DNA of 37,180 nt from an uncultured virus (IMG/VR IMGVR_UViG_3300000205_000001) (IMGVR_UViG_3300000205_000001:62001-99180), one strand, 5' to 3'. Counted from the stretch's first letter, positions 3-36,541 are shown. Numbers and translations: made by a program. The notes: generated from the sequence alone by a model not told the origin.

Positions 3-3000
3 ATGCCAAGCTTCGTGAAGACCGAGAAAGACGAAGAGCTGTGGAACAAAGCGAAGGAAATCGTCCAGAAGGAATACAACAAGTCGGAGTCTGACGGAGA
101 CGATTACTGGCGGCTGGTGACAGGCATTTACAAGCGAATGGTCGGCGGTCATGCGGAAAAGTCGATTTACAGCCTGTCAGAGCTGACCCTGTTGAATGGG
201 TACAGCCTTCAAAAGAGCAAAAATAAGTCGTCCGATACCCCCGAGGGGGTACATAAAGACCTGCCTCCGGGTGGTGTGTGGCGCACCATTCGGGGGCATC
301 ACGTGTATATCGTGAACGGAAAGATCGTGGCGGGTTCCGTTCCGCACGTATGGAAAACCGGGCAGTATGTCGCCATGGACAAGGAAACCATGGCGAAGCA
401 CCAGGCAAAGCTGGACGAGAAGGCGGAAAAGGAAACGGCGAAAGCCAAGACCACCAAGAAAACCGCCAAAAAGGCTTCCGAAGAGCCGAAGGAAGAGCCA
501 AAGAAGACCACGAAGCGGCAACCGATGGCGAAGCTGGGCGGTGCTGGGCGTGTGCTGGCAAGTGAGCGAATCGCTCAACTGAAAGAAGCCGCCAAGAAGC
601 ACAAAAACGGCCATGTGGTGGAGAACTGGACAGACAAGCAATGGAGCGACTTCTTCTATGAGCACCGGAAAGCTCCCGTCACCAGCCTTCGCAAGTTTCT
701 TAGTGAGCAGGGAGAATCCAAAAAAGGAGCGGGGAAAGATGCTGAGAAAGCTTCTACGAAAGCTGGTACGAATCGCAAGTCAGCAGGGAAGCCATCCGCG
801 AAATCGAGCGGAGCGAAGAGCGGAAGCAAGAAGGCTTCGGAAGCAAAGACAACAACCACGAAAAACACGAAGAAGCCAAAGTCCGCCACCGGGAACGCCA
901 AGGAACAAATGGCGAAAAACCGGAAGGACATTGACGCTATCGTGAATAGCTCCAACAACCACAAGGCAAATAAGAAGGCGCGGGAGACCACGAAGGAGGA
1001 CATTGAATCCTTCGGGAGTAATCCCAAGGTGAAACAGGGCAAGGGTGCAACCAAGGCAGACTTGGACGCTATGCTTGCGTCAAATCCTCCGAAGAAGAAA
1101 GCAAAGGAGACCACAAGAGCAGACTTGGACGCTATGCTTGGGGAAATGCCGAAGAAAGCCGCTGAACCGAAGACCACCAAGACCGCCAAGAAAGCGAAGG
1201 CGGAAGTCAAAGACATCCGTACCGAAGCCCAAAAGAACCGCGAACTGGCGTATGACGTGGGCGACAAGATTGGCGGCGCACGGAAGGACACCTACCAGCG
1301 CAACTTCTACCTGAATCCAACCCCGCAAGCGCTTCAGGAGTTGGAGCAATGGGCACCGGAGCTGGCACAGGTGGCTTGCCGGAAGGAGAACATTCTGAAA
1401 AAGGTGGACTTCGAAGCGGAGTACAAGCGCGGCACAGATGTGAATGTGGCGTTCCTGAAGCAACTCATCTACGACCGTATCTCGCCGAGACCTTCCGAAG
1501 ACACGCCGGAAGCCCGCATGAAGTACCTGTCCGGCATCCGGGAGCTTCACCGGGTGCTGACACCCATCAAGACGTGGGACGACATGCAGAAGGCAATTCG
1601 TGACCTGTCCGACCTTGCCCGAGCAGGTGCCGGGTTGGCGGAAGCAAAACACCGACTGGCGAACGCCGGACAATACTTCTACCTGAACACGGAATACTAT
1701 CAGGAGAAAGTTCGGAAGGGCGAAGAGGCGAAAGCCAAGCTGGACTTCGAAGCGCTGGGCGACAAGCTGAACAACTTCTTCACCGATTACAAAGCCCGCG
1801 AACGGACGTACAAAACCCTGCTGAGTAAGAAGCTGTCGTGGGACAAGTACTTCAACCCGAACGCTTCCGCTGAACCGGAGAAGCGGAAGGTGGAGCGAGG
1901 GGCACAGAAGAAGCGCTGGGAGCGTCGAGCTGTGGACGAGCATCAGCGCACAGGCGGGCGTGAGACCCCTGTGAAGAAGCCGGAAGACATGGTGAAAGTC
2001 TTCGGCATGAGGGGCGTGGAGTTCGGGCACTGGGTGGACGATGCCGCCGGGCTGTACCACCTGAAGCGCTCCGCTGAGGCTTTCCACGACCTTGCCGACA
2101 TCTTGGGCATGGACGACAAGGATGTGTCCCTGAATGGACGGCTGGCGATTGCTTTTGGCGCACGGGGCAAAGGACGGGCGCTGGCGCATTATGAGCCTGG
2201 CCGCAAGGTTATCAACATGACCAAATACGGCGGCGCGGGTTCGCTGGCGCATGAATGGGGGCATGCGCTGGACAACATCCTCTACCAATACTCCCACGGT
2301 GGCAAAGGCTCCATCTCCATGGCTTCCGAAGGAGACATGGGCGACCATGACCAGAAGCTGAAAGAGCTGTACAACAACCTGATGGAAGCCATTATGAAGC
2401 CCGCTCCGGGCGACAAGGGCGGCACGAAGAAAATCAAGCTGGATTCGTCCAAAAAGCTCTACACCACCTACTACCCGGAAATGCGCCGGGACGTAGAAAG
2501 CGGCATGTCGCCGCAGGACGTGTACACCAAGTGGGCGGGGAAAATCAACAACGACATCGACCGCCAAATTCGGGCGGTGAAGAACAACCCGTTTCGCACC
2601 CCGGCAGACATCGAGAAGCGGGTGAAGGCGTTGGAGCGTCAGCGTACCCGGGAGATGAACGACTTGGCGGGGCGTATCGCCCAAGAGTTTCGCTACAAGA
2701 TGGGCGGGCACAAGACCGGGGAGCACTTCCAAGCGGAAATCGAAGTGCCGACCGGGCACTCCGAATACTACACCCGGATGCAAGAGCTGGACGGAAACGG
2801 CAAGAGCTACTACGCCCAGCCTGATGAGATGTTTGCCCGTGTGTTTGAATCCTACATTGAGGACAAGCTCAACGCCGCCAAGCGCAAGAACAACTACTTG
2901 GTGTGGGACACCAAAACCACCCGTGGTTCGGACGCGCCATTCCCGGTGGACAAAGAGCGCAAGCACATGCACAGCGCCATGGAAGCTCTTCTGAAGTATG

Positions 3001-3779
3001 TCGTCAAAGGCGGGGCGTTGAAGAAAGCGCTGGAGATGGAGCTTCGGAAGGGATATCTCACCTTCAACCATCCGGCGCTGAGTGGGGAAACCAAGCGCTA
3101 CGCTTACCCGGTGGACTGGACACGCGGCACCTACACGGTGGAAGACGTGTTCTATATCCCGGTCAACCGTCTGAACATGGTCTATCAAACCGAAGCCGCC
3201 ACGGACTGGGACAAGGTGAAGGAGAACATGGACAGGATGAGAGCCGGGGAAGCGCTGGAGCCTGTGGTGATTGGCTATGACTACGACATCCATGACGGAC
3301 ACCACCGCTGGTTGGCGGCAAAGGCGCTTGACCACACCCATGTGCCTTGTGTGGTAGGCGGCACGAACGAGCTGGACGTACAGCGGGCGAAAGAGAAGTA
3401 CGCCGAGCTGTGGAAATCCATTATCCCTGACCCAACCGGAACCAGTCCCTTCCCGGAAGACGGCACCATCATGTTCCGGGGCATCGGTCAGCGGGAGCTG
3501 GACTTCATTCGGAAGCACGGCTACATCCAATCGAAGGGCAAAGGCAATGACGACGACAAGGAAGACCGGGAGACGTGCTTTAGCACCACCTTCCGGCAGG
3601 CGGAAGGGTACGCCCGAAGCAACTACGACCTGTACGGAGAGACTGCCGCTTACGTCATTGTCGTGCCAAGACCGCCTTGGGTAGAGGAAGACGAACACGG
3701 GGAGCTGATTGCCCGCCGACCTGTCCCGGTGCACAACGTCACCGCGCTGTTCCCGATTCCGAAGGATGAGCGGGTATGA
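3..3779 (+). CDS. Large polyvalent protein: Lys/Ala-rich N-terminal region, zincin metallopeptidase/LPD1-like domain, ParB/Srx-like domain, C-terminal ADP-ribosyltransferase-like domain
   Basis: 1258 aa ORF. Motifs: DVGDKIGGARKD; RGVEFGHW...LAIAFGARG.G.ALAHYEP...INMTK..GAGSLAHEWGHALD (HExxH at ~2250); YYAQPDEMFARVFESY; ParB-like EPVVI...DGHHRWLAAK...VPCVV (~3150-3360); ART-like FRG...CFST...EHGE (~3465-3776). The start is at the window edge, so an upstream extension is possible. Confidence 0.8.
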   Translation: MPSFVKTEKDEELWNKAKEIVQKEYNKSESDGDDYWRLVTGIYKRMVGGHAEKSIYSLSELTLLNGYSLQKSKNKSSDTPEGVHKDLPPGGVWRTIRGHHVYIVNGKIVAGSVPHVWKTGQYVAMDKETMAKHQAKLDEKAEKETAKAKTTKKTAKKASEEPKEEPKKTTKRQPMAKLGGAGRVLASERIAQLKEAAKKHKNGHVVENWTDKQWSDFFYEHRKAPVTSLRKFLSEQGESKKGAGKDAEKASTKAGTNRKSAGKPSAKSSGAKSGSKKASEAKTTTTKNTKKPKSATGNAKEQMAKNRKDIDAIVNSSNNHKANKKARETTKEDIESFGSNPKVKQGKGATKADLDAMLASNPPKKKAKETTRADLDAMLGEMPKKAAEPKTTKTAKKAKAEVKDIRTEAQKNRELAYDVGDKIGGARKDTYQRNFYLNPTPQALQELEQWAPELAQVACRKENILKKVDFEAEYKRGTDVNVAFLKQLIYDRISPRPSEDTPEARMKYLSGIRELHRVLTPIKTWDDMQKAIRDLSDLARAGAGLAEAKHRLANAGQYFYLNTEYYQEKVRKGEEAKAKLDFEALGDKLNNFFTDYKARERTYKTLLSKKLSWDKYFNPNASAEPEKRKVERGAQKKRWERRAVDEHQRTGGRETPVKKPEDMVKVFGMRGVEFGHWVDDAAGLYHLKRSAEAFHDLADILGMDDKDVSLNGRLAIAFGARGKGRALAHYEPGRKVINMTKYGGAGSLAHEWGHALDNILYQYSHGGKGSISMASEGDMGDHDQKLKELYNNLMEAIMKPAPGDKGGTKKIKLDSSKKLYTTYYPEMRRDVESGMSPQDVYTKWAGKINNDIDRQIRAVKNNPFRTPADIEKRVKALERQRTREMNDLAGRIAQEFRYKMGGHKTGEHFQAEIEVPTGHSEYYTRMQELDGNGKSYYAQPDEMFARVFESYIEDKLNAAKRKNNYLVWDTKTTRGSDAPFPVDKERKHMHSAMEALLKYVVKGGALKKALEMELRKGYLTFNHPALSGETKRYAYPVDWTRGTYTVEDVFYIPVNRLNMVYQTEAATDWDKVKENMDRMRAGEALEPVVIGYDYDIHDGHHRWLAAKALDHTHVPCVVGGTNELDVQRAKEKYAELWKSIIPDPTGTSPFPEDGTIMFRGIGQRELDFIRKHGYIQSKGKGNDDDKEDRETCFSTTFRQAEGYARSNYDLYGETAAYVIVVPRPPWVEEDEHGELIARRPVPVHNVTALFPIPKDERV
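1056..1140 (+). repeat. 22-bp direct repeat inside ORF1 (peptide ADLDAML)
   Basis: gcagacttggacgctatgcttg at 1056-1077 and 1119-1140; a more degenerate KKARETTKEDI unit lies just upstream. Confidence 0.85.
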
Positions 3780-3805
3780 CACTCCTGTTCAAACTTGGAC
3801 AATTT

Positions 3806-3863
3806 TGCTAAAATGAAGGCGACTTAGGCAACGGGTGGACTTCCGAAGTCACCCGTTTGTCTA
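3806..3863 (+). promoter_or_regulatory. Extended -10-like element followed by a leader hairpin capped by CTTCCGAAG
   Basis: TGcTAAAAT at 3806-3814 with no clear -35; hairpin taggca-acgggt-g-gacttc(c)gaagtc-acccgt-t-tgtcta at 3825-3863; RBS AAAGGGGGA before ATG 3887. Confidence 0.45.
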
Positions 3864-3886
3864 TATTGCCGAAAGGGGGAAACCGC

Positions 3887-6800
3887 ATGGAGACAACGAA
3901 GCCGTTCCTGTACATCGACTTATCCAAGGCGTGGCGGGAAGAGTTGCACCCACGGGATAAGTACGGCAGGTTTACCACCGTCAAAGGCGGAAGCCGTGTC
4001 GTGACGAAGACAGGGAAAACAGGGGTAGTCGAAGAAGTTACGGACACCCACTACCACGTCCGCTACGACGATGGGAGAAAAGGCAAGGTAGCGAAGGACA
4101 ACGCTATCCATGTCAATGACCACAAGAAAGTCATGGACGCCCAAAAAGCCGAGAAAGCCAAAGCGAAGAAGCGCAAAGCGGCGGCAGAGAAGGCGAAGAA
4201 GACCAAGGAGCATAACAAGACCAACGCAACCGGGAAGACGGGAGCCGCCAAGCCGCTGAAAGACCCGACCGCGACCGCTCCGAAGAAGGCGGCGAAGAAA
4301 GCTTCCGAGGCGAAAAAAGCTACGGCAAAGGCGGCAAAGCCGAAGAAGCAAAGCCGGGCGAAAGAAGCGCTGAACGCGCCTGTGCTGAAGCGTAACGTGC
4401 GTCATGACACCGAAGACATCCGGGAAATTAAGCAGACCATTCCGCAGAAGAAGGCTTCGGAAGTTCCGAAGAGTGAGCAGAACGAAGCCATCAGGGAATA
4501 CAAGGAAATGGAGACCAAGGGCACTGGCTCCATGAGCAAGCTGGACATGGATTGGAACAGCCACCCGGACGTAAAGCGCATCCTCTCGCAACCTGTCGCA
4601 AAGCGCAACGCAGAGGAAATCCGCCGTGTCGCCGGGGAGATTGCCAACGCCAATGACAAGCTGGCGCGTTCCGTGGTGCTGAAGATGGGCAACGCCCGTG
4701 GTTTGCACTTGGCAAGCCAAGTGAACCGCATCGGCAACAAGGCAACCAATCCGAAGAACGTCATTGTGCAGGAGACCAATTACTACGGGGACATGCTCCA
4801 GTCCGCACGGGCAACCATGTACGAGACGCTTCACAACGTCTTGGCGGGAAGCCAAAATCCGGGCAAGGACACGTCCATTGGCAAGCATGTGGTTCGCCGC
4901 ATGAAGGACAAGCTTCATCGGGACATGTACGCGCTTCTGAACGATATTCCCGCGCCGCATGAAATCCGCGCCGCCATTGGCGACATGCGGAAAGCGGAAA
5001 TGCACCTGACGCAGAAGCTTGGGCGCATCCCGACCAACGAAGAGCTGGGCGCGTACCTGCAAGAGAACTCCAAAGCCTTCCGGGAAGCTCCCATCGTCAA
5101 ACCTCCGAAGTGGGATGAGGCGAAGAACGACTGGGTGGCGACCAAAGAGCGCTACGAAGACCCGGCGGAGCGGCTTCAAGCTCTTCGGAACTATGCAAGC
5201 CAGCAAAAAGCTACGTCTCTTGACCAAAACATTGGTTCCGAAGGAGAGCGGGAAGTCTCCTTGAAGGACAGCATGGCAGACGACTCTCGTAGCCCGGAAG
5301 AGCACGTTCTGAAAAAAGAGCGTCAGTCGGCACTGGAAGACGCAGTTCCGAAGGCGTTCAGCGAATTGGGGCTGACGGACGACGAAATCAAAGTCTTGCT
5401 GACCAAGCATAGCGCACCTTCCACGGCGTCCCCGAGCAAAGCCAGCCTGACGGACGAAGAGACGGCGGAGCAGTTGAACGCCCAGCACGGCATGAAGGTG
5501 GACGGCAAGTGGGTAGCCAACCGCCGCGCTTCCGCCATGAAGAAGCTTCAGCGGGCGCTGGAAGAGAAGCACCCGGCGCTGATGCAACTGCACAGCATGA
5601 TGAAGTCCTTTGCGCTGGCAATGATTTTCAAGGCGCTCTACGAATACGACTTGGTGAAGTCCCTGCATGCGTGGGGCGTAGACCACACGCTTTTGCAACA
5701 GCGCTTTGTTCGGAAGGCAACGGCGCAAGACCGCATCGAGCTGTACAAGTCCTTGGCTCCGCATGAGTACGTAGGTTCCTACGTTACCACCGACGAGGGG
5801 CACATTATCGCCAATGTGGTGGAGTTTGTCCTGCCGGAGACCAACGCCCTGTACAAGTCCTTCAATGCGTTCATGAGCGGGATTCAGAAGTCCATGTTTG
5901 CTCACAAAGGCAAAAACCACGAAGTCAACAAAAAGGCTTCGGAGTACGTGAAGGCGAATTCGGGAAAGTACCAAGCCCTAGCCAACAGCCAGCAGGAGCG
6001 CGTGAAGCAGAAAAAGAGTAGTGGCAAAGCGCTCACATGGTCTGAAGAACTCCTGCTGAAAAATCCCGGTACGTGTTGGATTACATGGGGCGGAAAGAAA
6101 ATTCTGATTCACGGAAGTACCGGGGAAATCAAGTACGACTCCGCGAACGAAGCACACCGCGAAGAGCACAACCAAGGCGCACAGGAAGAGAAAATCGACT
6201 TCCACCATGAACGGGAAGCCTTGGAAGAGCACGAAAGCGAAGCGGAGAAACGTGCCTTGGAAGCGTGGGAAAAGGAAGGGAAGAACCTGAAAGGGAACTT
6301 CCGAACCAAGTTCCTCCGTGACCACCGCCTGACGGAAAACGAAGACGGCACGGTAACCTTCAACCGCCATCAGGATGTTTCGGAAGACAACCGCCACCTG
6401 ATTGACCATGGCATCCGGGCGTTCCATGAGGAAATGTCCAAGATGAAAAGCGACTGGGACAAACTCCACGCCGCCATGAAGGAAGAGAACAAGCACAAGG
6501 TAACGAACCACTACGCCGACATGAGCGAAGAGGAACGCGCCGAGTACGACAAGCTCTCCAGAGAGGAACAGGCGATTGCGACCGGAAACCACCTGCTGGA
6601 TAAGGAAGGCGTACTTGACCGCCTGAAGCGGTTCCATGACGAAGCCCAAGGGAAGTCCAAGGAAGAGCAAGCCCAGCTTGCAGAAGAACTTCTGAATGAC
6701 CTGAAGGGTATGGAGCACGGCTCCATGGCGTTGGTCAACAAGAAAATCATGCTGGGCGGCGGTGCGAACTTGGCGGGTATCGCTGGGGCGCTTCTGGAGT

Positions 6801-8586
6801 ACGACCCGACTTCCGAAGAGGGAAGGAAGGAAATCGCCAAGCGGATTGGCACTTCCGAGCTTGCCCGCGCCAACGAAGAAGCTGGAAAAAACCTGATTGC
6901 AGAAGGCAAGTACCTCATCGGCAACCCGCTCACCGGAAAGACCATGGTGGTGCACGTAGGACACGCCTTCGAAGGCGGGCGCGGCGGACGTGGCGGCAAG
7001 CTGGCTCCAGTCATTAAGGAGGCGTTCGACCCGGAAGGCGGACAGCACGAAGACCTGCAAAGCTGGGGCGGTCTCGCCCGGGCGCTGGGCTTCAAAAACG
7101 AGAAGGGCAACACGGCTGACCTGAAAAAGCTCATCATCGACAGCGCCAACAAGGACGCCAACAGCCCGATGGTCAAACCGCTTTCCGAAGACGAATACCT
7201 GAAGCACCGCGCCAACACGAAGCTGGGGCTTCAGGAGACCATGCTCCACAAGGAGTTTAAGCTGGTCAATCAGTCCCGCGACGACAAAGGCAATATCACC
7301 AGCCAAACCTTCGCACAGAAGATGCCGGATGGAACCGTCAACCACATCACGGTGGACGGAGAGGGCTACATTCAAGACCCGCTGATGAGACGCCTTTTGA
7401 ACCAACGGAAGCCCGTGACCAATGAGAAAGAGCTGAACGAACTGCTGAAAAACGCTGTCGGCAACCGCCGATGGGTAACGGCTCACTTCGGAAGCGACAT
7501 TCACATTGGTGACGCGCTGGGGCACCACATCCTGCTGGAGTATGACGGCAAAGGCGCTCCCCGGGTAGTCGGCGGGAAGTACGATGGGTACCGCTACATC
7601 GACGCCGCAGACGTTCCGAAGGGTGCCATCGACCCGGCGACCGGGGAACCTGTGAAGGCGCTGTTCAAAAACGGCAAGCTGGTAGACCGCCGCTTCACCA
7701 CCATGAACGAAGTGCCGATGGAAGTGGGCAATGCGGTCTTGTACCCAACAGGAAACGGCACCTTCCGAAAAGGACGCATCCATTCCGAAGTCGAAGGCGG
7801 CTTCAAGATTACGGACGGCAAAGGGCACGTCATTGGCGTGTTCAAGAAATCCGAACTGAAGCCTGCCAAACAGGAGGGGCGCATCCTCTCCGAGAGCGGT
7901 CAGGTTGTGGTGGACACGCACCAAGAGGGCGTCCACCGCATGAACGTGGATGAAGCGTTCAAGCCTGCCAGCGATAAGAAGCGGGACATTGCCCGGGCAG
8001 AGAAAGCCAAGGCGCTGTTCGCAGAAGCCCTTCGGAAGGCGAAGGTGAACAAAGCCTTTGACGAAGAGGGCAACCTGAGAAGCGACTTGGAGCTGTCTGA
8101 CCCGATGATGAGGCGGCTTCAGAAGGTACTGGGACGCTCCAAGGCGGGGCGCGAGATGCTTGCGAAGTTCAGCACGACCAAGCTCCCGGCAACGCTCAAA
8201 ATCCATGTGCCGGAAAGTCAGCGCTCCACAGTGGAGCAGTACGGCGTCACCGTCCGGGCAGACGGCACGGCGACCATCTCCCCGGCGAAGTTTGAAGAGC
8301 TTCGGGAAGCACTGGGCGGGTTGTCGCTGACACACCGGGCGCAGGAGATGCTTCAGGAGCACTTCCAGCGCAAAGACCGCACCCCGAAGACGGTGGAAGA
8401 GCTGAAGCAACGCTACCAGCCTTCCCAAGTGCCCAACAAGGGAGAGGGAAGCTTCGGGTACCACTATCAGCAACAGTTCAAGCCGAACAGCTTCCTGATG
8501 GACGCCAACAAGGGCTTGTACGGAACCCAGTTGGAAGGCGTGGCGCACATGATTGAGCGCGGAAGAGTGGTTGTTGGACACGGGAT
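3887..8586 (+). CDS. Exon 1 of a giant polyvalent protein (HPRxxxGRF motif, KOW/SH3-like, sigma-70-like r2-r4, second KOW-like, start of SNF2 helicase)
   Basis: ATG 3887 has a strong RBS (the track start at 3857 is less likely). Motifs: LHPRDKYGRF; sigma-like LTQKLGRIPTNEELG, TSLDQNIGSEGEREVSLKDSMADD, LTDDEIKVL...LTDEETAEQL...ASAMKKLQ. Ends LYGTQLEGV...VVVGHG-AT, the first half of helicase motif I. Confidence 0.8.
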
Positions 8587-11700: not shown

Positions 11701-11729
11701 AAGGGCTTCTTCGGAAGCCCTTACTTTTC
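11701..11729 (+). terminator. Probable intrinsic terminator with C(UUCG)G loop
   Basis: aagggcttc-ttcg-gaagccctt followed by acttttc, just after the helicase stop. Confidence 0.7.
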
Positions 11730-12038: not shown

Positions 12039-12060
12039 GCTTCGGAAGGGGGGTGAGGGG

Positions 12061-12264
12061 ATGCTGAATTGTCCTGAGTGCAACCGAATCATCATGGATT
12101 CCACCAGTGACGGTGGGTGGAAGCTTCGTTCCCGCATGGTGCTGTTCCATGGCGGAAAAGCGGAAGCGCTGTGCCCGACCTGCAAGACACGGGTGGAGGT
12201 TCCTGTTCTGCTTGGCGACATCGGCAACCCGCCTCCGAAGCCCAAAATCGTGGTGAAATCGTAA
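12061..12264 (+). CDS. Small zinc-ribbon protein (Mu Com-like architecture)
   Basis: 67 aa with CPEC...CPTC; RBS GGGGGTGAGGGG. Confidence 0.7.
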   Translation: MLNCPECNRIIMDSTSDGGWKLRSRMVLFHGGKAEALCPTCKTRVEVPVLLGDIGNPPPKPKIVVKS

Positions 12265-20747: not shown

Positions 20748-20773
20748 GGGACTTCCGAAGGGGGTAGAAACAC

Positions 20774-21259: not shown

Positions 21260-21275
21260 TCTTCGGAAGCGCAAA

Positions 21276-27548: not shown

Positions 27549-27562
27549 AGGGGGTGTACCGC

Positions 27563-28160: not shown

Positions 28161-28532
28161 ATGCCACTTATGGAACCGACCCATTACCTCCCGGATGAAG
28201 AAATCAACTTCCGAAACTACCCGGAGCTGTACACCGTATGGGACGACCTTCAGAAGATTAACGCCTACGCCACCCGGGTGCACAAGGCGCTGGCGGACTA
28301 CACCAGCGGGCAGTATGACAAAATCGACCTGAACACCGAAGAACTGAACTCGTACATCACCCTGTGCCGAAACGTCTGTAGCGTTCTTGGACAGGCTCCG
28401 AAAGTGTGTTTTGACATCCTGCTGGACTTGCGGGAGCTTCAGTACCACATGCAAATACTCCTGTACAATCGCAGGCGCTTCGGAAGCAAGTTCATCGGCA
28501 CACCATCAACCAGCGGGGAGGGTGACCTGTAA
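28161..28532 (+). CDS. Hypothetical baseplate-region protein
   Basis: RBS GGGGTGA, 123 aa, coupled to the next gene. Confidence 0.6.
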   Translation: MPLMEPTHYLPDEEINFRNYPELYTVWDDLQKINAYATRVHKALADYTSGQYDKIDLNTEELNSYITLCRNVCSVLGQAPKVCFDILLDLRELQYHMQILLYNRRRFGSKFIGTPSTSGEGDL

Positions 28533-29469: not shown

Positions 29470-30612
29470 ATGTTCGAGCGCTTATCCATGGAGCAGATTT
29501 ACGCCAAAATGGAAGGCTGGGCAAAGGGCGTGACCAGCAAGGTGACCGACTTCCGGGTTGGTTCGAAGGTTCGCACCGTTCTGGAAGCCGTGGCGGTAGT
29601 TGTGGAAGAGCTGTACGACCGCATCTACCGCCGCCTGAAAGCACTTATCGAAGAGAGCATCTACACCATTGTTGGCTTCAACAAAATACCCGCCACCTAC
29701 GCCAGCGGCATCGCCCGCTTCGGAAAGGCGTCCCCAGCCGAGCAGGACTACTTCATCCCGGCAGGTACCATGGTTCAGTCCCGGGCGTCCCAATTTACCG
29801 CGCCGCAGAAGTTCCGCACCACGCAGGACGCTCTTTTGCTGGCAGGCAGTACCTACGTGGACGTGCCTGTTGTTTGCATGGAACCGGGAACCATCGGAAA
29901 CATCGAAGCCAACACCTTGACGGAGTTCGTTCAGAAGCCCACAGGTATCGACACCGTGACGAACCCTTCCGCCTTCACCAACGGAAGGGAGGAAGAGACC
30001 CTAGAAGAGCAAAAGGCGCGGTTCCAGCGCTTCATCGAGTCCCAAACCCGGGGGATTCTCCAATCCGTCGAATACGGAGCTACCCTTGCTGTCGTAAAGG
30101 ACGAAAACGGAAACATCGTCGAGCGGGTGCTGGACGCCCTTGCTGTGGAAGACCTGCCCGCCCGGAAAGGGGAAGTAGACCTGTACATTTGGAACGGTGT
30201 CGGTCAAGCTTCGGAAGCACTGATTGACGAAATATGGCGCATCGAAAAGGGGTATTACGACGAATTCGGGAACCCGGTGTACGGCTACAAGCCCGCCGGG
30301 ATATGGCTGAACATCTACTCCGCATCTGTGAAAAACGTGAAAATTCAGCTTCAGGTAACACCGGAGTCTACCGTTACGCTGGAAGAACTGAAGCCGCAGA
30401 TTGAAGCGGAGATTGACCGTTACTTCTCCGAAGTCAAAATGGGTTCCACAGTGATACAAACCGCACTGGAAGCCAACATCAAGGACATCGAAGGCATCTA
30501 TGACGTGAAGCTGTACTTCTCCACCGACGGCGGAGCCAGCTACGACACAAACAACATTGTGCTGGGTTCTTACGAAGTCTGCCTGTTGGATAAGCCCATC
30601 ATGTATGTGTAA
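29470..30612 (+). CDS. Baseplate J-like protein
   Basis: TDFRVGSKVRTVLEAVA, IPAGT, GTIGN, VTNP..FTNGREEET, YKPAGI. Confidence 0.88.
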   Translation: MFERLSMEQIYAKMEGWAKGVTSKVTDFRVGSKVRTVLEAVAVVVEELYDRIYRRLKALIEESIYTIVGFNKIPATYASGIARFGKASPAEQDYFIPAGTMVQSRASQFTAPQKFRTTQDALLLAGSTYVDVPVVCMEPGTIGNIEANTLTEFVQKPTGIDTVTNPSAFTNGREEETLEEQKARFQRFIESQTRGILQSVEYGATLAVVKDENGNIVERVLDALAVEDLPARKGEVDLYIWNGVGQASEALIDEIWRIEKGYYDEFGNPVYGYKPAGIWLNIYSASVKNVKIQLQVTPESTVTLEELKPQIEAEIDRYFSEVKMGSTVIQTALEANIKDIEGIYDVKLYFSTDGGASYDTNNIVLGSYEVCLLDKPIMYV

Positions 30613-30625: not shown

Positions 30626-32023
30626 ATGAAGATGATGAGAGCCTTGCTTCAGAACGTGGGGCGAAGCTGGAATGTCCTTCCGCAGGACATTCCAGTGCTC
30701 ACCGTGACAGCACCGGGCGTAAATGGGACGTTCCCGCACAAGTTCGTAACGGTCACCCACAACGAGCTGATTTTCCATAACATCACGTATCGGAAGGGCT
30801 TGCCGGAGAAGATATCCATTTCCTTGGACGGCATGACCTTGGGAGAGCTGGCAACCTTTTTGACCAACATGGAAGTGGACTTTGCCCGCCCATACTACGC
30901 CACACTCACTTCCGAAGGTGCTAAAATAGCCGGTCAACTGGCGATTAAGCTCATGCCCGTGGAGAACCTGCCGCTTACGGGACGAAAGACTTTCACCCTG
31001 ACGGCGTTTTCCTCCAAGCTGTGGGAAGTGCTTTATCCCATTGCCCGGCTGTTGCAGGAAGCAGACGGGGACGTGGATAGAGCGATTGAGCAGATGATGG
31101 CACCCATGTCCAGAGGCAGATGGCTGGAGTACTGGGCGTCCTTTTTCAAAGTGAAGCGCGTCACCGGAGAGTCGGACAGTAGCCTTGCCAACCGAATGAT
31201 GCTGGCGCTGGCAAATATCAAGACGAACAACATAGCGATTGAACAACTTGTGCGTATAGCACTTCAGACTAAGCAGGTGGAAGTACGTGACTTGTCGCCT
31301 GCCCTGTTCGAAGTCGTCATCGAGCCGGAATTTATCGGGACGTCTAGTTTGGTGCACCCCATCATCCAGTCATTAAAAGGCGCGGGTATCGACTACTTTC
31401 TCAACTACGCCAAGCAACTGGAAGAAAACTACCGAGCATCCTTTTTTGATCGAGAATTCCAATCGTTTATCACATCTGATAAACGCACGATGGACGCAGA
31501 AGCTCGCATGCGCGAAACACCTTTTGGACACACCCAAGGCCATCAACCGTTCCGGTTGAACATAACGAAGCTGGTTACTGGTCGTCCTATTCTGGATACG
31601 CCAAAGCGCATCCTCCGAGATGATGCTTCCTTGGTGCTTGAACCCGCATGGGGCGAATTTTACCCGCTTCTGGCGCTTCAGAAGACTACGACGAGCAGGT
31701 TTCGCCTGAATTCGGGGAGACTGAACCGCACCGAATCCGAAAACACCCTCTATGGCACGGTAAATTATGGTGCTATAATGGATGGGACGATGGTAGAACT
31801 TGTCGAGGGGTTTCCGAATCCTTCGGAAGCGATAGGTACCGAGATGGCGCATGTCGAGCAACTCTATAGAGAGCCTGTTGTACGAGGCTCGGTAGGCTTC
31901 CGTCTCAACTTTAGCAAAGTGATGAGTGGGGCTACACTTTCACGATTGGACGAGCGTGTAAGCGAAGAGGGTTCCATGACCCTGACGCGAGGCGGCACAA
32001 CCGTCCAAAGCATGACTTGGTAA
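30626..32023 (+). CDS. Baseplate wedge protein (P2 gpI-like) with repeated C-terminal motif
   Basis: GRWLEYWASFFKVKR..GESD; LKGAGI; follows the J-like gene. Confidence 0.65.
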   Translation: MKMMRALLQNVGRSWNVLPQDIPVLTVTAPGVNGTFPHKFVTVTHNELIFHNITYRKGLPEKISISLDGMTLGELATFLTNMEVDFARPYYATLTSEGAKIAGQLAIKLMPVENLPLTGRKTFTLTAFSSKLWEVLYPIARLLQEADGDVDRAIEQMMAPMSRGRWLEYWASFFKVKRVTGESDSSLANRMMLALANIKTNNIAIEQLVRIALQTKQVEVRDLSPALFEVVIEPEFIGTSSLVHPIIQSLKGAGIDYFLNYAKQLEENYRASFFDREFQSFITSDKRTMDAEARMRETPFGHTQGHQPFRLNITKLVTGRPILDTPKRILRDDASLVLEPAWGEFYPLLALQKTTTSRFRLNSGRLNRTESENTLYGTVNYGAIMDGTMVELVEGFPNPSEAIGTEMAHVEQLYREPVVRGSVGFRLNFSKVMSGATLSRLDERVSEEGSMTLTRGGTTVQSMTW

Positions 32024-32041: not shown

Positions 32042-32626
32042 ATGAAAAACCAGTGGGAAGAACGTGGCATTTTGTCCGCGAAGGGCTTCATCAGCGCCTT
32101 CATGCACACTTCGGAACTGGAATTCGTATCGCTTAGCGATACCGACCCCATGCAGGGGTACTTCCGAAGACCGAATAACGTCCTGCAAGAAATGCACGTA
32201 AAAAATCTCATCGTAAGCAAGGCGTCCCAATTCATGGCGAAGCGTATGCGTCCCGGAGCGTCTTGGGGGACAGGCATTACTCACTTGGAAGTGGGAACAG
32301 GAGTTGGCACGGGAACCACACAAGCGCCGCAACCTGAATCGGCTGACCAAACAGCGCTTCGTGCTCCACTGGCACGAAAGGCCATTACATCGTGGACATA
32401 TCTGGATGCAAACGGGGCACCAACCGCTTCGGAAACAAACGTCCTTCAGCTGACCACGACGTTTAACGAGACAGAGGCAACGGGGGCTATTGTAGAAATG
32501 GGGCTGTTTGGCGGCGACGCCACGGATGCCATTGGGACAGGCTACATGTTTAACTACAAGACATTCCCGGTATGGAACAAAGCTTCGGATATGAAGCTGA
32601 CCATTGTGTGGAAGCTCACGTTCTAA
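32042..32626 (+). CDS. Baseplate/tail-fibre attachment protein
   Basis: KNLIV, ITHLEVGTG, DQTAL, EATGAIVEMGLF, LTIVWKLTF. Confidence 0.65.
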   Translation: MKNQWEERGILSAKGFISAFMHTSELEFVSLSDTDPMQGYFRRPNNVLQEMHVKNLIVSKASQFMAKRMRPGASWGTGITHLEVGTGVGTGTTQAPQPESADQTALRAPLARKAITSWTYLDANGAPTASETNVLQLTTTFNETEATGAIVEMGLFGGDATDAIGTGYMFNYKTFPVWNKASDMKLTIVWKLTF

Positions 32627-32644: not shown

Positions 32645-35600
32645 ATGGCTGATTTTACCGTTCAGGATAAGTTTAACCCGGACAAATCCTTCACAGACGT
32701 GAAATTCGGTTCGGATTCCGTGCTTTTGGAAGTTGAACTGAACGAAATGCAAAAGATTCAAAACCATATGAGAGCGGAGATTCTCCGCAATATGGTGCAT
32801 AGCGGTTTTCTGAGCATGGGCAAAACTCTTGTAGGGTTGGACTTCTTGCGGACTAAGCGGGATGGTGCCGTGCTAGTACCAGCAACATACGCCCAATTCA
32901 ACTTCAAAAATATGATGCAAATTGACGCCATAAAAGCCGTTGTGAACGGGTTCATGTTGGACATCTCCAAGTTTGTAGACGCAACAGGCTACAGTGACGC
33001 CGATCTGACCACCGGAAACCTGATTCAGCTCCCCGACCCGCCTGCTACGGGAACCCGCGAAGACTTGGTATTCTTGGAAGTTTGGTTTGAGGAAATCGGG
33101 GATGGGGAGACCATAAACCGATACGGGGGAACCAAATCAGGTATCCTTACAAACGACTTGAAAGACAGCCGAATTGGTGAGGAAACGTCCCGCCGCAATC
33201 AGCTCAAATGGCGCATTCGAAGTGTTGCTGGTGTAAACTTCGGAAGCAAGCCTGAAGGGGTAGACGACGCTACAGTCGTAAAGGCATGGGGAGCAAACAC
33301 CGCCGACACAACGAGAGTGTTTACGAAGCATGCAACCGATAAGGGACTGTACGTAGCTGGCGACGGCTCTCAAGCGTCTAAGGATGAGCTACGAACTGTC
33401 GATGGGTATGTGTATGCCGTTCCGATGTTTCGCGTATCGCGCCGCAATTCTGGAAGCTTCAGCGTGAATAACCCAACTGGCGCTCGCAACGCTGTACGGC
33501 TAGTAACAACACAAGCGGTTAGCGCGTCCGAAGTTCCCGTCACCTTCGGAGTTACCAGCGTAGCAGGTATCCAAGTCGGTGATATGCTTATCTCCGATGA
33601 TGGGACTCTCTTCGGAAAAGTTACCGCGATTGATACGAACGCCAATACGCTTACAACCGCCCGCGCCGCTTTTGCGGTAGGCTTCGGTGGAGCGATCAAC
33701 TTGAAATCTGACCGTCCCGATGGTCTGTATGCTGACATCATCGACGAGCGCGATATCATCGACCTTCGCCATTACGCACCATTACAAAAACCGGACTACA
33801 AGGCACTCCTTGCTTCTGAGTTCCAAAAGTACATGCGCGGGGAACTGGCGAAAAGAGCTACACTGAAGACGTATCACGGCCTTCGGAAGACACCGACAGA
33901 TGCCAGCACTGTATTTTACACGTCTCTGGATGGTACGGCGACGGCGGAGATTGGCGGAGCACCTACCGTAACTGGCACCGTAGCGTTCGCACCGTCTGTC
34001 ACGGGTTCAGGCATGTACTTTGATGGTTCTACACACCTGTCCTACCCGCTGAACAACCTGTCCAGCGGCGTATCGGCAGTCACACTTGACTGCTTTGTAC
34101 GGGTGAAAGACTTTAGCAATACGCGGCATTTCTGGGGCTTGTACGACCCGTCCAGCCAGCTTTCGGTATCTTTCTACTACCTCCAAACTGGAAACTCCAT
34201 TCGCCTGTCAAAAAGGGGCGCGGTGCTCCTAGAGGCTCTGAAGGGAACCGCAGATAAAATTCTGAAAAACTTCACCCACCTGCGTGTCGTGCTGACCGAC
34301 GCGAAGGCACAGCTTTATGTGAATGGCGCACTGGTCGCAGAAACTTCGTCAGCACCCGGCGTTACGATGTCGTTTGCATCCATGACGGTGGGCTACATTA
34401 CGGGAACCAGCCCGTCCTTCAAGATGATCGGAACCATAGCCGACCTGGCCGTATCCAACATCGACCGAGGAACAACCTTCACCACGCTTCCGAAGGACTT
34501 CACTGATGGATACGCTGTTCTCGCGCCCGCCTTTACGGGGCAACGCAGACAGTATTCCGAGGCGCAAAATACACAAGTGCAGGTTGGCTTCGCAAAACTT
34601 GGCGGTACAGGAAGCTCCCGTGGGATTAAAGTGACGCTTCAACAGAACGCCAACCAATGGACGGCTGGTGACAAAATCTCCATCGAAGGTGTAGCCGGGG
34701 AGATTATCACGGGTGTCTATGACACCGATACCGCTCTTGCGAAGGTGACACAGGACTTCGCAAGCGGCGGAACCGTCGTTTACGTAGACGACGTTTCCAA
34801 GCTGGCTGTGAACGATACGGTTCGGTTCTACAATCGCATAAACAACACCGTGAGCGGCGAATACACCATTTCTGCCGTAGATACTACCGCGAAGACCATC
34901 ACACTGTCTTCGGTGGTCAACCAAGCGCTTACGAAGGAGCAAGACTTCGTGGTAGAGACCACCGCTTCGACTTCTGTACCAACCGTGAAGTTCAAAGACG
35001 GTTCCATCTACACCCAAGCAGGTACGTGGACAGGCCTTGGAACGAACAAAGCAGAATTCACGCTTGGTTCGTTGGCGGCACAGCTCAACGTAGAGGACTT
35101 GGAGATTACCTACAGCCTGACCACTCCGGCAGGGCAAGCGGGCTTCTCCGAAGTTCCAACGGCGGTGTATGGCGGGGAAGCAAATGGCGGTGCGCTAAAA
35201 ATCGGAACCGTTGCCGTGTCGGACGACTTCGCTGGAAAAGTGCAGGGAAGTGTCACAGCAAATCCTAACGTAATGAAAAATACCAGCTCCGCGAGCTTGG
35301 TTTCCCCCACAACCCTGAGTGAGGTTTCCACACAAGCTTACTATGACGCGATTACGGCGCTTGACGGAAATACGGCGAACACACAAACAACTGTGAACGG
35401 AGAAATCCCTCAACACATATTTGCCTTCGACCTCATCCGCATTGTGGAGGACAAGTTCGGGGAAATTCCGTCTCTGAACAAGGTGCAGTGGCTGAAGGAC
35501 AATCTAAAGGCCATCACATTCAAATGGTGGGGACACGGAAGTTCTGCGTCTGGTAACAAAGCGAACGTGCGGTGGTGGGATGGAAGCACAAGCGCATGGC

Positions 35601-36502
35601 AAGGCTCCTCCTTTAATGCGTCGTCCACGGCTACACTGGTAACTATAATCTTGTTGAAGCCGAACACAGACAAAAACATCGACGCCGGCGGATTCGCACA
35701 CTTCATTGCCTACACCGACGCATCCGACGGTGTCACAGCATCCGCTATCAACACGGACTACGCTATGCTTGAAGTCGAGCTGGTAAGTAAGCCCGAGTAC
35801 AGCCTGCTCGTCCCCAGCAACCCACGGCGAGACGCAGGGAAATCCGCTGTTCTCTTGGTTCGGAAGGAGACCAAAGAAGTCGAATCCTACTTTAACCACG
35901 ACAACAACTACGGCATCGCAACCTATGTAGAGTATTTGCCCGTTCCGCAGGTACTGGCGACTACGGAAGACGTAACCATCCTTGCAGAAGCTTCCGAAGT
36001 TCTTCTCACCGACCTTGGCACTTCCGTAGCCCATAAACAGGGAACCCATCCGTTCCTGAACCCGGCTTACCGGGTACGCAATGACCGCATCGACATGTAT
36101 GGCGAATTCGGATTCGGTAGCGTAGCGATTGCACGGGACACGAAGGATGCAAACACGGGGGCGAAGGTGCGTGTAAATGGTACGGGCTTCAGTGACCAAT
36201 ACACCAAGCAATACGCCATCCCGGTTGTTCAGAAACCGATGGTCGGCATTGTTCCCTATCTGGTGCTTCATAACGGCGAGCTGAAGCTGTTCATCTTCAG
36301 TAAGTACATGACCTCCGGCACGTTCGACGTGGACGGCGCTGGCGTCGGTCTTTTGGTTCCCATCAGCGGCAAACCGCTTGTGAAGGAACAGGAAGGCGTC
36401 ACGCGCACAGGTGTAACGACTCCGACCACTTGGAGAACGCCAACGGGTGAAGTCCAAGGCTGGATGAACGCCAGCGGGCAAATCATCGCAACGTACCAGT
36501 AA
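32645..36502 (+). CDS. Tail fibre / receptor-binding protein with LamG-like domain
   Basis: 1285 aa; N-terminal ELNEMQ, REDLVFLEVW, RPDGLYADII...IIDLRH; FTHLRVV...LYVNGALV (LamG-like). Confidence 0.75.
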   Translation: MADFTVQDKFNPDKSFTDVKFGSDSVLLEVELNEMQKIQNHMRAEILRNMVHSGFLSMGKTLVGLDFLRTKRDGAVLVPATYAQFNFKNMMQIDAIKAVVNGFMLDISKFVDATGYSDADLTTGNLIQLPDPPATGTREDLVFLEVWFEEIGDGETINRYGGTKSGILTNDLKDSRIGEETSRRNQLKWRIRSVAGVNFGSKPEGVDDATVVKAWGANTADTTRVFTKHATDKGLYVAGDGSQASKDELRTVDGYVYAVPMFRVSRRNSGSFSVNNPTGARNAVRLVTTQAVSASEVPVTFGVTSVAGIQVGDMLISDDGTLFGKVTAIDTNANTLTTARAAFAVGFGGAINLKSDRPDGLYADIIDERDIIDLRHYAPLQKPDYKALLASEFQKYMRGELAKRATLKTYHGLRKTPTDASTVFYTSLDGTATAEIGGAPTVTGTVAFAPSVTGSGMYFDGSTHLSYPLNNLSSGVSAVTLDCFVRVKDFSNTRHFWGLYDPSSQLSVSFYYLQTGNSIRLSKRGAVLLEALKGTADKILKNFTHLRVVLTDAKAQLYVNGALVAETSSAPGVTMSFASMTVGYITGTSPSFKMIGTIADLAVSNIDRGTTFTTLPKDFTDGYAVLAPAFTGQRRQYSEAQNTQVQVGFAKLGGTGSSRGIKVTLQQNANQWTAGDKISIEGVAGEIITGVYDTDTALAKVTQDFASGGTVVYVDDVSKLAVNDTVRFYNRINNTVSGEYTISAVDTTAKTITLSSVVNQALTKEQDFVVETTASTSVPTVKFKDGSIYTQAGTWTGLGTNKAEFTLGSLAAQLNVEDLEITYSLTTPAGQAGFSEVPTAVYGGEANGGALKIGTVAVSDDFAGKVQGSVTANPNVMKNTSSASLVSPTTLSEVSTQAYYDAITALDGNTANTQTTVNGEIPQHIFAFDLIRIVEDKFGEIPSLNKVQWLKDNLKAITFKWWGHGSSASGNKANVRWWDGSTSAWQGSSFNASSTATLVTIILLKPNTDKNIDAGGFAHFIAYTDASDGVTASAINTDYAMLEVELVSKPEYSLLVPSNPRRDAGKSAVLLVRKETKEVESYFNHDNNYGIATYVEYLPVPQVLATTEDVTILAEASEVLLTDLGTSVAHKQGTHPFLNPAYRVRNDRIDMYGEFGFGSVAIARDTKDANTGAKVRVNGTGFSDQYTKQYAIPVVQKPMVGIVPYLVLHNGELKLFIFSKYMTSGTFDVDGAGVGLLVPISGKPLVKEQEGVTRTGVTTPTTWRTPTGEVQGWMNASGQIIATYQ

Positions 36503-36511
36503 TAGGTGAAT

Positions 36512-36541
36512 AGGGCTTCGGAAGACTACCGAAGCCCTTTC
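36512..36541 (+). terminator. Hairpin terminator after the tail fibre gene
   Basis: agggcttcgg-aagacta-ccgaagccct followed by a short T run. Confidence 0.6.

Follow-up and report, generated by a model that had tools for sequence, protein, structure and literature searches.

An iterated nine-base quasi-palindrome in a clade of uncultured SPO1-like phages, a possible recognition site for a dimeric phage protein

Introduction

Short palindromes repeated a great many times have been described in cellular genomes, and what they serve for is still debated. Why should such an element pervade the genome of a phage, and what would read it there? The question is raised by a stretch of 37,180 nucleotides, hereafter the window, made of the last 37,180 bases of the 99,180-bp record of an uncultured virus (IMG/VR IMGVR_UViG_3300000205_000001; G000:C1:62001-99180, the whole genome being designated G000 below), throughout which the quasi-palindrome CTTCSGAAG, S being C or G, is found. 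Titles and abstracts returned by literature searches do not describe this motif in phages, and a full-text search for the motif strings gave primer-type matches only. We report here that the motif is enriched, selected at the nucleotide level, evenly spaced, conserved in related phages with a centre that differs between lineages, and that it co-occurs with a few genes. The chances are, in our opinion, about even that CTTCSGAAG is a selected, dyad-symmetric recognition site on duplex phage DNA, to which a dimeric protein encoded by the phage lineage would bind.

Results

Abundance of the motif inside and outside genes

The exact motif was present 49 times in the window (first copy at 475, last at 36516), compared to 0.42 ± 0.57 copies, and never more than 2, in 100 dinucleotide-preserving shuffles. 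An earlier examination of the same DNA, called below the sequence-only reading, had counted about 49 copies for some 0.3 expected, and its count was exact. Read on the + strand, the central base was C in 23 of these sites and G in 26. The complete G000 genome contained 145 copies, 81 with a central C and 64 with a central G on the + strand, that is about one per 700 bases, with 5 to 10 sites in each 5-kb bin. CTTCSGAAG was the most frequent 9-mer of the genome, with an enrichment of approximately 180 fold. Copies with one mismatch, also reported by the sequence-only reading, were enriched as well, chiefly when the mismatch fell at one of the two outer positions.

Most window sites (41 out of 49) were located inside open reading frames (ORFs), 10 of them in frame 0, 21 in frame 1 and 10 in frame 2, where they encode LRK or LPK, xSEx, and xFGS or xFRR, respectively. 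These 41 sites, obtained by an exact scan for CTTCSGAAG, are listed below in window coordinates, the strand being "." for all of them.

475..483, CTTCCGAAG, ORF 3-3779, frame 1, ASEE
835..843, CTTCGGAAG, ORF 3-3779, frame 1, ASEA
1492..1500, CTTCCGAAG, ORF 3-3779, frame 1, PSED
2323..2331, CTTCCGAAG, ORF 3-3779, frame 1, ASEG
3042..3050, CTTCGGAAG, ORF 3-3779, frame 0, LRK
4455..4463, CTTCGGAAG, ORF 3857-8629, frame 1, ASEV
6810..6818, CTTCCGAAG, ORF 3857-8629, frame 1, TSEE
7486..7494, CTTCGGAAG, ORF 3857-8629, frame 2, HFGS
8030..8038, CTTCGGAAG, ORF 3857-8629, frame 0, LRK
9053..9061, CTTCCGAAG, LAGLIDADG-like ORF 8650-9291, frame 1, ASEA
9784..9792, CTTCCGAAG, SNF2 ORF 9507-11687, frame 1, ASED
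11628..11636, CTTCCGAAG, SNF2 ORF 9507-11687, frame 0, LPK
13870..13878, CTTCGGAAG, ORF 12415-14127, frame 0, LRK
15275..15283, CTTCCGAAG, major capsid ORF 14158-15630, frame 1, ASEA
16126..16134, CTTCCGAAG, ORF 16109-16369, frame 2, GFRS
17659..17667, CTTCGGAAG, ORF 17271-18002, frame 1, SSEV
17916..17924, CTTCCGAAG, ORF 17271-18002, frame 0, LPK
18667..18675, CTTCCGAAG, ORF 17999-18841, frame 2, TFRR
19414..19422, CTTCCGAAG, small ORF 19392-19616, first of a triple spaced by 15 bp
19429..19437, CTTCGGAAG, small ORF 19392-19616, second of the triple
19444..19452, CTTCCGAAG, small ORF 19392-19616, third of the triple
21817..21825, CTTCGGAAG, ORF 21351-21851, frame 1, TSEV
22037..22045, CTTCCGAAG, ORF 21697-22089, frame 1, ASEA
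24358..24366, CTTCGGAAG, ORF 22154-25129, frame 2, DFGS
24532..24540, CTTCCGAAG, ORF 22154-25129, frame 2, TFRS
26049..26057, CTTCGGAAG, ORF 25117-26892, frame 2, SFGS
26491..26499, CTTCGGAAG, ORF 25117-26892, frame 0, LRK
26626..26634, CTTCCGAAG, ORF 25117-26892, frame 0, LPK
26921..26929, CTTCGGAAG, ORF 26850-27548, frame 2, AFGS
27387..27395, CTTCGGAAG, ORF 26850-27548, frame 0, LRK
28056..28064, CTTCCGAAG, ORF 27443-28147, frame 1, TSEA
28478..28486, CTTCGGAAG, ORF 28161-28532, frame 2, RFGS
29034..29042, CTTCCGAAG, ORF 28532-29467, frame 1, TSED
30209..30217, CTTCGGAAG, ORF 29470-30612, frame 1, ASEA
30909..30917, CTTCCGAAG, ORF 30626-32023, frame 1, TSEG
31821..31829, CTTCGGAAG, ORF 30626-32023, frame 1, PSEA
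32161..32169, CTTCCGAAG, ORF 32042-32626, frame 2, YFRR
33238..33246, CTTCGGAAG, ORF 32645-36502, frame 2, NFGS
33881..33889, CTTCGGAAG, ORF 32645-36502, frame 0, LRK
34487..34495, CTTCCGAAG, ORF 32645-36502, frame 0, LPK
35991..35999, CTTCCGAAG, ORF 32645-36502, frame 1, ASEV

The remaining 8 sites of the window were intergenic. At the scale of the genome, 113-114 of the 145 sites were in genes, and the 32 intergenic or gene-boundary sites represent an enrichment of about 2 fold, the non-coding share being 11%.

Could codon usage, repeated amino acids, the hairpins of terminators or some longer dispersed repeat have produced the motif as an artefact? The purine-rich coding strand does favour GAAG and CTTC: arrangements of the type CTTC-Nn-GAAG were found 9-18 times in G000 for n = 0 and for each n from 2 to 8, which for n = 2-8 is several-fold above the expectation from base composition. 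With n = 1, however, 161 were found. Moreover, the 114 copies counted in coding sequences compare to 8.15 ± 2.66 (maximum 19) in 300 shuffles of synonymous codons, and to 1.54 ± 1.30 in 300 permutations of whole codons. The enrichment therefore survives the codon-preserving null model by which the sequence-only reading had proposed to refute it, and the statements of that reading that the motif uses both orientations and several frames, and is not accounted for by amino-acid demand, are borne out.

The choice of codons points the same way. Among the 52 L[PR]K peptides, 46 are written by the motif (CTT-CSG-AAG), though CTT makes up 20% of Leu codons; the same is true of 47 out of 54 [ASTP]SE[VADEG] peptides and 21 out of 33 xF[RG][RS] peptides. 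In frame 1, the central base falls on the silent third position of a Ser codon; of the 47 sites concerned, 33 had C there, 14 had G and none had A or T. TCT and TCA represent 23% of the remaining TCN codons, and the computed chance of 0 W centres (A or T) out of 47 is about 5e-6. Since the silent centre is never A or T and the tripeptides are overwhelmingly written by the motif, we concluded that the preference is a constraint at the nucleotide level.

Symmetry, flanks and spacing of the sites

Outside the nine bases, flanking positions carried at most 0.10 bit each, and their weak preferences were mirror images of each other. As the flanks carry no information, the motif is not a fragment of a longer repeat, and an origin from such a repeat or from a mobile element was ruled out. 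Within the nine bases, the 7-bp core TTCSGAA was strict, with 145 perfect sites compared to 54 sites having a single inner mismatch, distributed over 18 variants; the outer C/G pair was favoured about 3:1. The centre was S in 145 sites and W in 16.

The eight intergenic sites of the window comprise the seven cited by the sequence-only reading, which were all found, and one more at 9334, as follows (strand "." for all).

3840..3848, CTTCCGAAG, at the centre of a long imperfect hairpin downstream of ORF 3-3779
9334..9342, CTTCGGAAG, missing from the list of the sequence-only reading
11709..11717, CTTCGGAAG, off-centre in a terminator-like hairpin, AAGGGCTTC-TTCG-GAAGCCCTT
12040..12048, CTTCGGAAG, 1 nt past the stop of ORF 11748-12038 and 12 nt ahead of the zinc-ribbon gene, no hairpin
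12282..12290, CTTCGGAAG, past the zinc-ribbon gene, off-centre in a terminator-like hairpin, ACCATCTTC-GGAA-GAAGATGGT
20752..20760, CTTCCGAAG, 4 nt past the sheath gene and 13 nt ahead of the next start, no hairpin
21261..21269, CTTCGGAAG, 1 nt past ORF 20774-21259
36516..36524, CTTCGGAAG, 5' arm and loop of a hairpin, AGGGCTTCGG-AAGACTA-CCGAAGCCCT

A minority of the intergenic copies thus lie in terminator-like hairpins, in a varied register. Matches to terminator-like patterns were not in excess over shuffles (33 versus 28.8 and 20 versus 19.4), average complementarity of the flanks was absent, and an identity with terminators or with hairpins of the repetitive extragenic palindromic type was ruled out. 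With codon-aware nulls, flanks, spacer length and hairpins all against it, we regard the artefact explanation as refuted, and give it practically no chance.

About 8 copies of a promoter-like repeat of some 30 bp, TTAGAATTC...TGTGTATAGT (extended -10 type), were also seen in G000 (genome 5671-5720, 43046-43095, 43661-43700, 46174-46220 and others, outside the window); in four of them the motif is placed 0-6 nt upstream of the -35-like hexamer.

Relative to transcription, the two orientations were used 58:55, without bias. A symmetric site with an S centre, accepted either way round, fits a reader of duplex DNA having itself a two-fold symmetry. Could the signal instead be read on RNA? The mRNAs would carry CUUCCGAAG and CUUCGGAAG, which may anneal to one another or be recognised by a protein that binds RNA, such as a Com-like zinc ribbon. 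It is a fact that 92 of the 100 called genes of G000 are on the + strand, and that the C-centre and G-centre forms are exact complements, so that any pair can anneal. Nevertheless, near-equal use of two distinct RNA forms on the coding strand is what is expected for a duplex-DNA reader, and sites are also present in gaps that do not look transcribed and upstream of the promoter-like repeats. We find an RNA signal highly improbable.

Sites were spaced more evenly than at random: the coefficient of variation of the spacing was 0.72, compared to 0.99 ± 0.08 for random placement, and none of 5000 simulations gave so low a value. The largest gap between sites was 2366 bp, for a simulated mean of 3757, and 9 gaps were shorter than 100 bp, for 19.3 expected.

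Clusters of 3 sites are rare in G000. The small ORF 19392-19616 (74 amino acids, aa) contains three sites exactly 15 bp apart, which encode a repeated F-R/G-S-E peptide, and three sites are also found near its homologue in the related genome G002. At its 3' end the MCM-type helicase gene has two abutting sites which together make a perfect 18-bp palindrome (genome 18478-18495, not in the window), an arrangement kept in G002 (55318-55335).

Conservation of the motif and dialects of its centre

Relatives of G000 were fetched from IMG/VR and metagenomes with capsid, helicase and other queries, and counts were made on whole records. Five related IMG/VR phages, of 43-57% GC, carry the motif at 0.8-1.8 per kb, and it is nearly absent from a sister clade represented by G004 and G007. 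Counts are given below; in addition, G005 has 99 sites.

G000, GC 55%: S-centre 145, W-centre 16, CTTCGAAG 12
G003, GC 55%: S-centre 151, W-centre 40, CTTCGAAG 3
G002, GC 57%: S-centre 107, W-centre 27, CTTCGAAG 5
G001, GC 45%: S-centre 127, W-centre 6, CTTCGAAG 68
G006, GC 43%: S-centre 29, W-centre 50 (79 N-centre in all), CTTCGAAG 3
G004 (sister clade), GC 40%: S-centre 1 (in 80 kb), W-centre 1, CTTCGAAG 0
G007 (sister clade), GC 39%: S-centre 0, W-centre 2, CTTCGAAG 0

The half-sites CTTC and GAAG are invariant across lineages, and the centre is either S, unconstrained (G006, where it is near base composition) or optionally absent (G001). More widely, the motif was the top 9-mer in 13 out of 17 capsid-related loci. 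The hexamer TTCGAA was not found in G004/G007 (L024-L028, L069-L072), for 24-26 expected, and was found 187 times in G001, for 30 expected.

A scan of IMG/VR with the 18-base double site returned 5 loci; enrichment of the motif was observed in two clade members only, the three others having just that one double site or little more. One unrelated IMG/VR phage contig (L111, GC 58%) contains another iterated word, with the 9-mers CGTGAGACC and ACGTGAGAC 20-21 times in 20 kb.

Are individual sites maintained? Considering the G000 sites in aligned coding sequences, 25 out of 79 were exact at the homologous position in G001 and 22 out of 68 in G002, at a nucleotide identity of about 57%, whereas none out of 66 was exact in G004. 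Mismatches at homologous positions were bimodal, being either 0, or 3 and more. That about one third of the sites are held in position at such an identity, with bimodal mismatches, indicates purifying selection on existing sites. L[PR]K peptides were written by the motif in 43 out of 45 cases in G003, 29 out of 37 in G002, 30 out of 39 in G001 and 0 out of 14 in G004. Tripeptides of this type were about 3 times more numerous in homologous segments of the motif genomes, from which we concluded that protein sequence has been bent too.

These data bear on the idea of a mutational or repair drive, in which biased mismatch correction or gene conversion would push sequences toward a motif having no function of its own. 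HIP1-type palindromes have been discussed in such terms. The density of sites in G000 genes was similar whether these are unique (1.08 per kb), partly shared (1.38) or core (1.28), which suggests that sites are acquired rapidly; and 0 sites were found in 5.5 kb comprising the tail-fibre end, amidase, thymidylate kinase, ligase and PhoH genes, which were probably imported recently but were chosen after the data had been seen. The purifying selection described above argues against the drive, more-even-than-random spacing is not predicted by it, and it would still require a sequence-specific enzyme, of which none was identified in G000. We judge it very improbable.

Palindrome avoidance and placement of the host

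Other palindromes are purged from G000: for 29 of the 64 six-base palindromes at most 1 copy was present where at least 10 were expected, and the 64 taken together amount to 0.40 of expectation. Observed over expected counts were 27/381 for GATC, 12/551 for GGCC, 42/381 for CTAG and 631/551 for CCGG. The relatives avoid different sets. In G001, GATC (0/403) and CCGG (0/277) are missing, as is GGCC, whereas G002 avoids few palindromes (GATC 477/353, CCGG 980/625). Such differing profiles argue for different hosts or restriction repertoires, yet the motif is constant and tracks the phylogeny of the phages. The purging itself suggests that the DNA is ordinary and restrictable.

By tblastn against plasmids and phages, the only matches were to Bacillaceae elements, at about 22% identity, and the closest Atlas clusters of the endolysin are from Bacillota. 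From these similarities the host probably belongs to the Bacillota, a loose placement. Bacterial genome contigs searched with the capsid alignment and with a VirD4-like protein yielded no relative.

The target of a conserved host factor, such as a Chi-like regulator of AddAB or RecBCD, an uptake-type sequence, or a nucleoid or segregation site, which the phages would mimic or exploit, is made improbable by these results. Its density (about 1 per 0.7 kb), the use of both orientations and the occasional terminator stems do resemble uptake sequences, and a signal halting exonucleases coming from either end would benefit a linear phage DNA. But Chi and uptake sequences are asymmetric and read on one strand, whereas the motif is symmetric with an S centre. 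It persists over 43-57% GC and differing avoidance profiles, hence probably in different hosts, a closely related clade (G004/G007) does without it, and its centre varies between phage lineages. Most likely the reader belongs to the phage lineage rather than to a single host.

A methyltransferase, another base modifier, or a restriction-like nickase or nuclease, of phage or host origin, could also have CTTCSGAAG as its target, the abundance of the site resulting from a need for modification or cutting at short intervals, or being a by-product of associated repair. A short palindrome with an odd, S-restricted centre is typical of type II recognition sites, and the sharp specificity (145 perfect sites versus 54 with an inner mismatch) is in keeping with this. 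The dialects S, N (29 S and 50 W in G006) and none (68 CTTCGAAG beside 127 CTTCSGAAG in G001) recall the CCSGG / CCNGG / CCWGG / CCGG series of related enzymes which flip out the base at the centre. Genes for a ligase that is ATP-dependent, for a RuvC-like protein and for a nuclease of Cas4 type are present in G000. On the other hand, the 107 phage ORFs searched against Pfam (27 of them also against PHROGs) gave no match to a family of methyltransferases or restriction endonucleases, a result which also goes against the sequence-only reading, where a methyltransferase elsewhere in the genome was among the possible readers. A modification target provides no obvious reason for a 180-fold enrichment and an even spacing, and the purging of palindromes suggests, as said, ordinary DNA. 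The signature of very-short-patch repair was looked for among one-mismatch neighbours, and transition variants showed no clear depletion, on small counts. An enzyme target is, in our view, unlikely.

Candidate readers

The dimeric reader proposed here may be a protein gained or lost with the motif. The sequence-only reading had put forward ParB-like, sigma-like and SNF2 modules encoded in the window:

3..3779, strand +, polyvalent protein with LPD1 and a ParB-like nuclease domain
3857..8629, strand +, giant protein of 1590 aa with a marginal match to sigma-70 region 3
9507..11687, strand +, SNF2-family ATPase, 65% identical to its G004 homologue

These are not favoured, as both SNF2 proteins of G000, the ParB-like polyvalent protein and the sigma-like giant protein have homologues at 40-65% identity in the motif-poor G004. 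Of the called genes of G000, only those of the SprT-like/helix-turn-helix (HTH) protein (genome 7013-8785) and of the zinc ribbon occurred in each of the five motif genomes while missing from both G004 and G007. Unannotated gaps, when searched, yielded two more ORFs distributed in this way, both of 113 aa. These four small genes are the best candidates for the reader. Two of them are in the window, at least in part:

12061..12264, strand +, zinc-ribbon protein of 67 aa (CxxC...CxxC), candidate reader 1, flanked by the sites at 12040 and 12282
1..91, strand +, 3' end of the winged-helix ORF of 113 aa, candidate reader 2, mostly upstream of the window (genome 61753-62091)

The second 113-aa ORF (genome 34282-34620) lies upstream of the sigma gene and has no assigned function. 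Profile hidden Markov models (HMMs) of the zinc ribbon and of the winged-helix ORF found no match among six-frame ORFs of G004/G007.

The zinc-ribbon protein has 53 homologues of 56-73 aa, and K21, R23 and R25 are invariant in the five motif genomes. CTTCNGAAG was present at 0.64-2.5 per kb in all 19 IMG/VR loci having the gene. Its AlphaFold2 model has a predicted local distance difference test (pLDDT) score of 91. Modelled as a symmetric homodimer it scored 0.42, compared to 0.00 for the best of 3 controls; this mark was reached by 20 out of 30 proteins solved as one-chain pairs, and by 1 out of 23 solved as single chains. The runs agreed in at least 93% of contacts, with a partner pLDDT of at least 69, and the predicted interface consists of the conserved hairpin 17-31 (K-x-R-x-R) and residues 48-55. 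The winged-helix ORF, found in all five motif genomes, is modelled as a winged helix followed by a long C-terminal helix (AlphaFold2 pLDDT 78); the folds that come closest to it are those of PadR/LmrR and of the replication terminator protein (RTP) of Bacillus, with a probability of 0.92-0.97 and E of 3e-3. The SprT-like candidate, of 590 aa, combines SprT-like, zinc-ribbon and C-terminal HTH parts.

Several points weigh against a dimeric reader chosen among these proteins. The dimer score of the zinc-ribbon protein equals the mark without exceeding it, and was obtained with a custom alignment and zinc ligands, unlike the calibration set. The protein has no Pfam match at E <= 0.001, only generic zinc-ribbon matches being returned when the threshold was relaxed (no E better than 0.0035), and in the PDB no fold match at E <= 0.001 and sequence matches only at E > 1. 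One source labels a homologue 'phage FluMu protein Com', which speaks for the RNA signal considered above, Com of Mu being an RNA binder; the label was not confirmed, as none of 5 members matched Com in Pfam and NCBIfam gave no support, so that an identity with Com was rejected. In the zinc ribbon, residue 20, which is W, V or Y, had seemed to go with the dialect of the centre, but locus L093 (Y20, with 24 S and 8 W centres) contradicts this, and a role of this residue in determining the centre was also rejected. Dimers of the PadR or RTP type usually read half-sites about one helical turn apart, not a compact 9-bp site. In G006, the SprT-like copy is without the HTH, and its HExxH motif is replaced by HQMIH, so that the catalytic Glu is missing; this genome still has 79 sites, with a relaxed centre. 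Finally, the co-occurrence of genes and motif is one evolutionary event, a single split into two clades, which leaves four candidates, and fast-evolving small proteins of the sister clade could escape detection by tblastn and HMMs.

Supposing that a dimeric reader exists, the zinc ribbon is a possible but doubtful choice; the SprT-like/HTH protein and the winged-helix protein are each a less probable one, and another protein altogether takes up the remainder.

Gene content and context of the window

The motif-bearing phages are a clade of uncultured, SPO1-like (Herelleviridae-like) myoviruses. The best cultured match of the major capsid protein was Bacillus phage Nachito, at 37% identity, the best matches being all SPO1-like Bacillus phages, and none of the cultured phages searched was near-identical to G000. 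No repressor or integrase family was found in a Pfam scan of the G000 ORFs, and no tRNA gene was found in the genome.

IMG/VR classes the G000 record as having direct terminal repeats. The terminal overlap of 105 bp is within the last gene, and because this repeat sits inside one gene spanning both ends, we concluded that the record is a circular or permuted assembly. The end-spanning gene (window 36634-37180 plus genome 1-2099) encodes CBM96 / disaggregatase-repeat, then Laminin_G_3; its 2.1-kb part at the start of the genome has 0 motif sites and a lower GC.

The window contains genes for two giant proteins, a LAGLIDADG-like ORF, an SNF2 ATPase, and head, sheath, tube-initiator and baseplate genes. 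Outside the window G000 encodes HU, a split family-A DNA polymerase (in several pieces, genome 8849-23221), an MCM-type helicase, ribonucleotide reductase, thymidylate kinase, a ligase, a sigma factor and a split large terminase. The large terminase is made of three ORFs with an HNH endonuclease ORF among them (genome 52908-55902, outside the window). The LAGLIDADG-like ORF, of homing-endonuclease type (window 8650-9291), follows the gene of the second giant protein and precedes that of the SNF2 ATPase; none of the 6 relatives has a counterpart of it, yet it already has one motif site (9053).

The sole minus-strand block (genome 35866-42704, outside the window) contains Replic_Relax, a VirD4/TraG-like ATPase, a SpoIIIAC-like protein, YdjM and the actin-like ALP, a plasmid- or conjugation-like module in a virulent-looking myovirus, with a normal density of the motif. 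Another word, AAAGGAGCTGGT, occurs genome-wide in 15 copies on the + strand and 1 copy on the - strand; many genes probably share it as an extended ribosome-binding site, and a similar word is found in G001.

Discussion

HIP1 (GCGATCGC) of cyanobacteria is the closest system in form: it is short, present about once per kb, in genes and in all frames, its enrichment survives codon-aware nulls, and its purpose is debated. The sequence-only reading had drawn this analogy with a genome-wide mark, and it holds for density, for presence within genes and for selection at the nucleotide level. The differences are that HIP1 belongs to cellular chromosomes, whereas the motif described here is a trait of a phage lineage, with 9 bp and an odd S centre, that no cognate methyltransferase is present in the 107 phage ORFs, that the centre shifts between sister lineages, and that other palindromes are purged. 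Two papers link HIP1 to CGATCG methylation (PMC6604393, PMC6105098). Our finding is a phage-lineage variant of the iterated-palindrome phenomenon, which composition does not explain.

The other analogy of the sequence-only reading, with stoperators, did not stand: the 145 sites are symmetric, used 58:55 in orientation, and mostly within genes (113), whereas in Cluster A mycobacteriophages the stoperators, of which a genome has a few dozen, are asymmetric 13-14-mers, mostly intergenic, oriented with transcription and bound by the immunity repressor. The likeness is limited to many copies of a short site, phage-wide and, here presumably, read by a phage protein. DNA uptake sequences of Neisseria and uptake signal sequences of Pasteurellaceae also have 9-12 bp, about one copy per kb in both orientations, a genic location and at times a pairing at terminators, but they are non-palindromic and belong to competent hosts, whereas the motif is quasi-palindromic and follows phage phylogeny. 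Chi sites of RecBCD and AddAB are over-represented short words shielding linear DNA, sometimes enriched in phages; they are asymmetric, read on one strand and host-specific, unlike a dyad-symmetric motif common to phages with differing avoidance profiles.

In geometry only, the site resembles KorB OB (TTTAGCSGCTAAA), the AP-1/CRE sites of bZIP proteins (TGASTCA / TGACGTCA) and MetJ/Arc-type beta-ribbon operators. Inverted half-sites abut a central S, one dimer reads a compact site, and the tolerance for 0 or 1 central base has a parallel in CTTCGAAG beside CTTCSGAAG in G001. However, a replicon contains between a few and a dozen operators of this sort, and they control promoters, whereas 145 mostly genic sites are present here, and no homology to the KorB, bZIP or MetJ/Arc-type families was found. 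Sites of type II restriction-modification systems are likewise short, sharply defined palindromes (compare S 145 and W 16), but here the site is enriched, not avoided, and the enzyme families are lacking from the 107 ORFs, some of which have no family at all. As to ParB-parS, parS sites are palindromes read by an HTH protein of the ParB family, few and clustered, whereas the present sites are dispersed, and the ParB-like protein is also found in the clade without motif.

How might a dimeric reader act? A homodimer would recognise two inverted 4-bp half-sites around one central G:C pair and accept either orientation. Selection keeps the site dense and even over the whole genome in one clade, at a cost in the choice of codons and even of amino acids. 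Most likely, the sites would designate the phage chromosome over its full length as 'own DNA', every point being within about 2 kb of a site; such an address may serve to coat or protect the DNA as it enters the cell, to remodel or compact it, or to recombine it.

One version of such an address, which we put forward as speculative and rather improbable, is a self barcode. A small, sequence-specific adaptor encoded in the module of head and injected proteins, the dimeric zinc ribbon and/or the winged-helix protein, would read the iterated 9-bp palindrome and tether the activities of co-injected polyvalent, SNF2 or SprT-like protease proteins to phage DNA only, every 0.7 kb or so. Incoming DNA would thereby be coated, remodelled or freed of host defence proteins ahead of host enzymes, and the centre would evolve between lineages along with its reader.

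The present case offers an iterated palindrome confined to a small, fully sequenced phage genome, with a motif-free sister clade as a natural control. Centres that changed with the lineages, and only four lineage-specific candidates, make the question of the reader testable with few proteins and oligonucleotides. The motif may be used as a marker of this clade in metagenomes. Its signal has reshaped codon and tripeptide usage across a proteome, in genomes that otherwise purge palindromes under restriction pressure, and if it is true that a phage protein marks its own DNA in this way, this would be a new viral means of telling self from host DNA.

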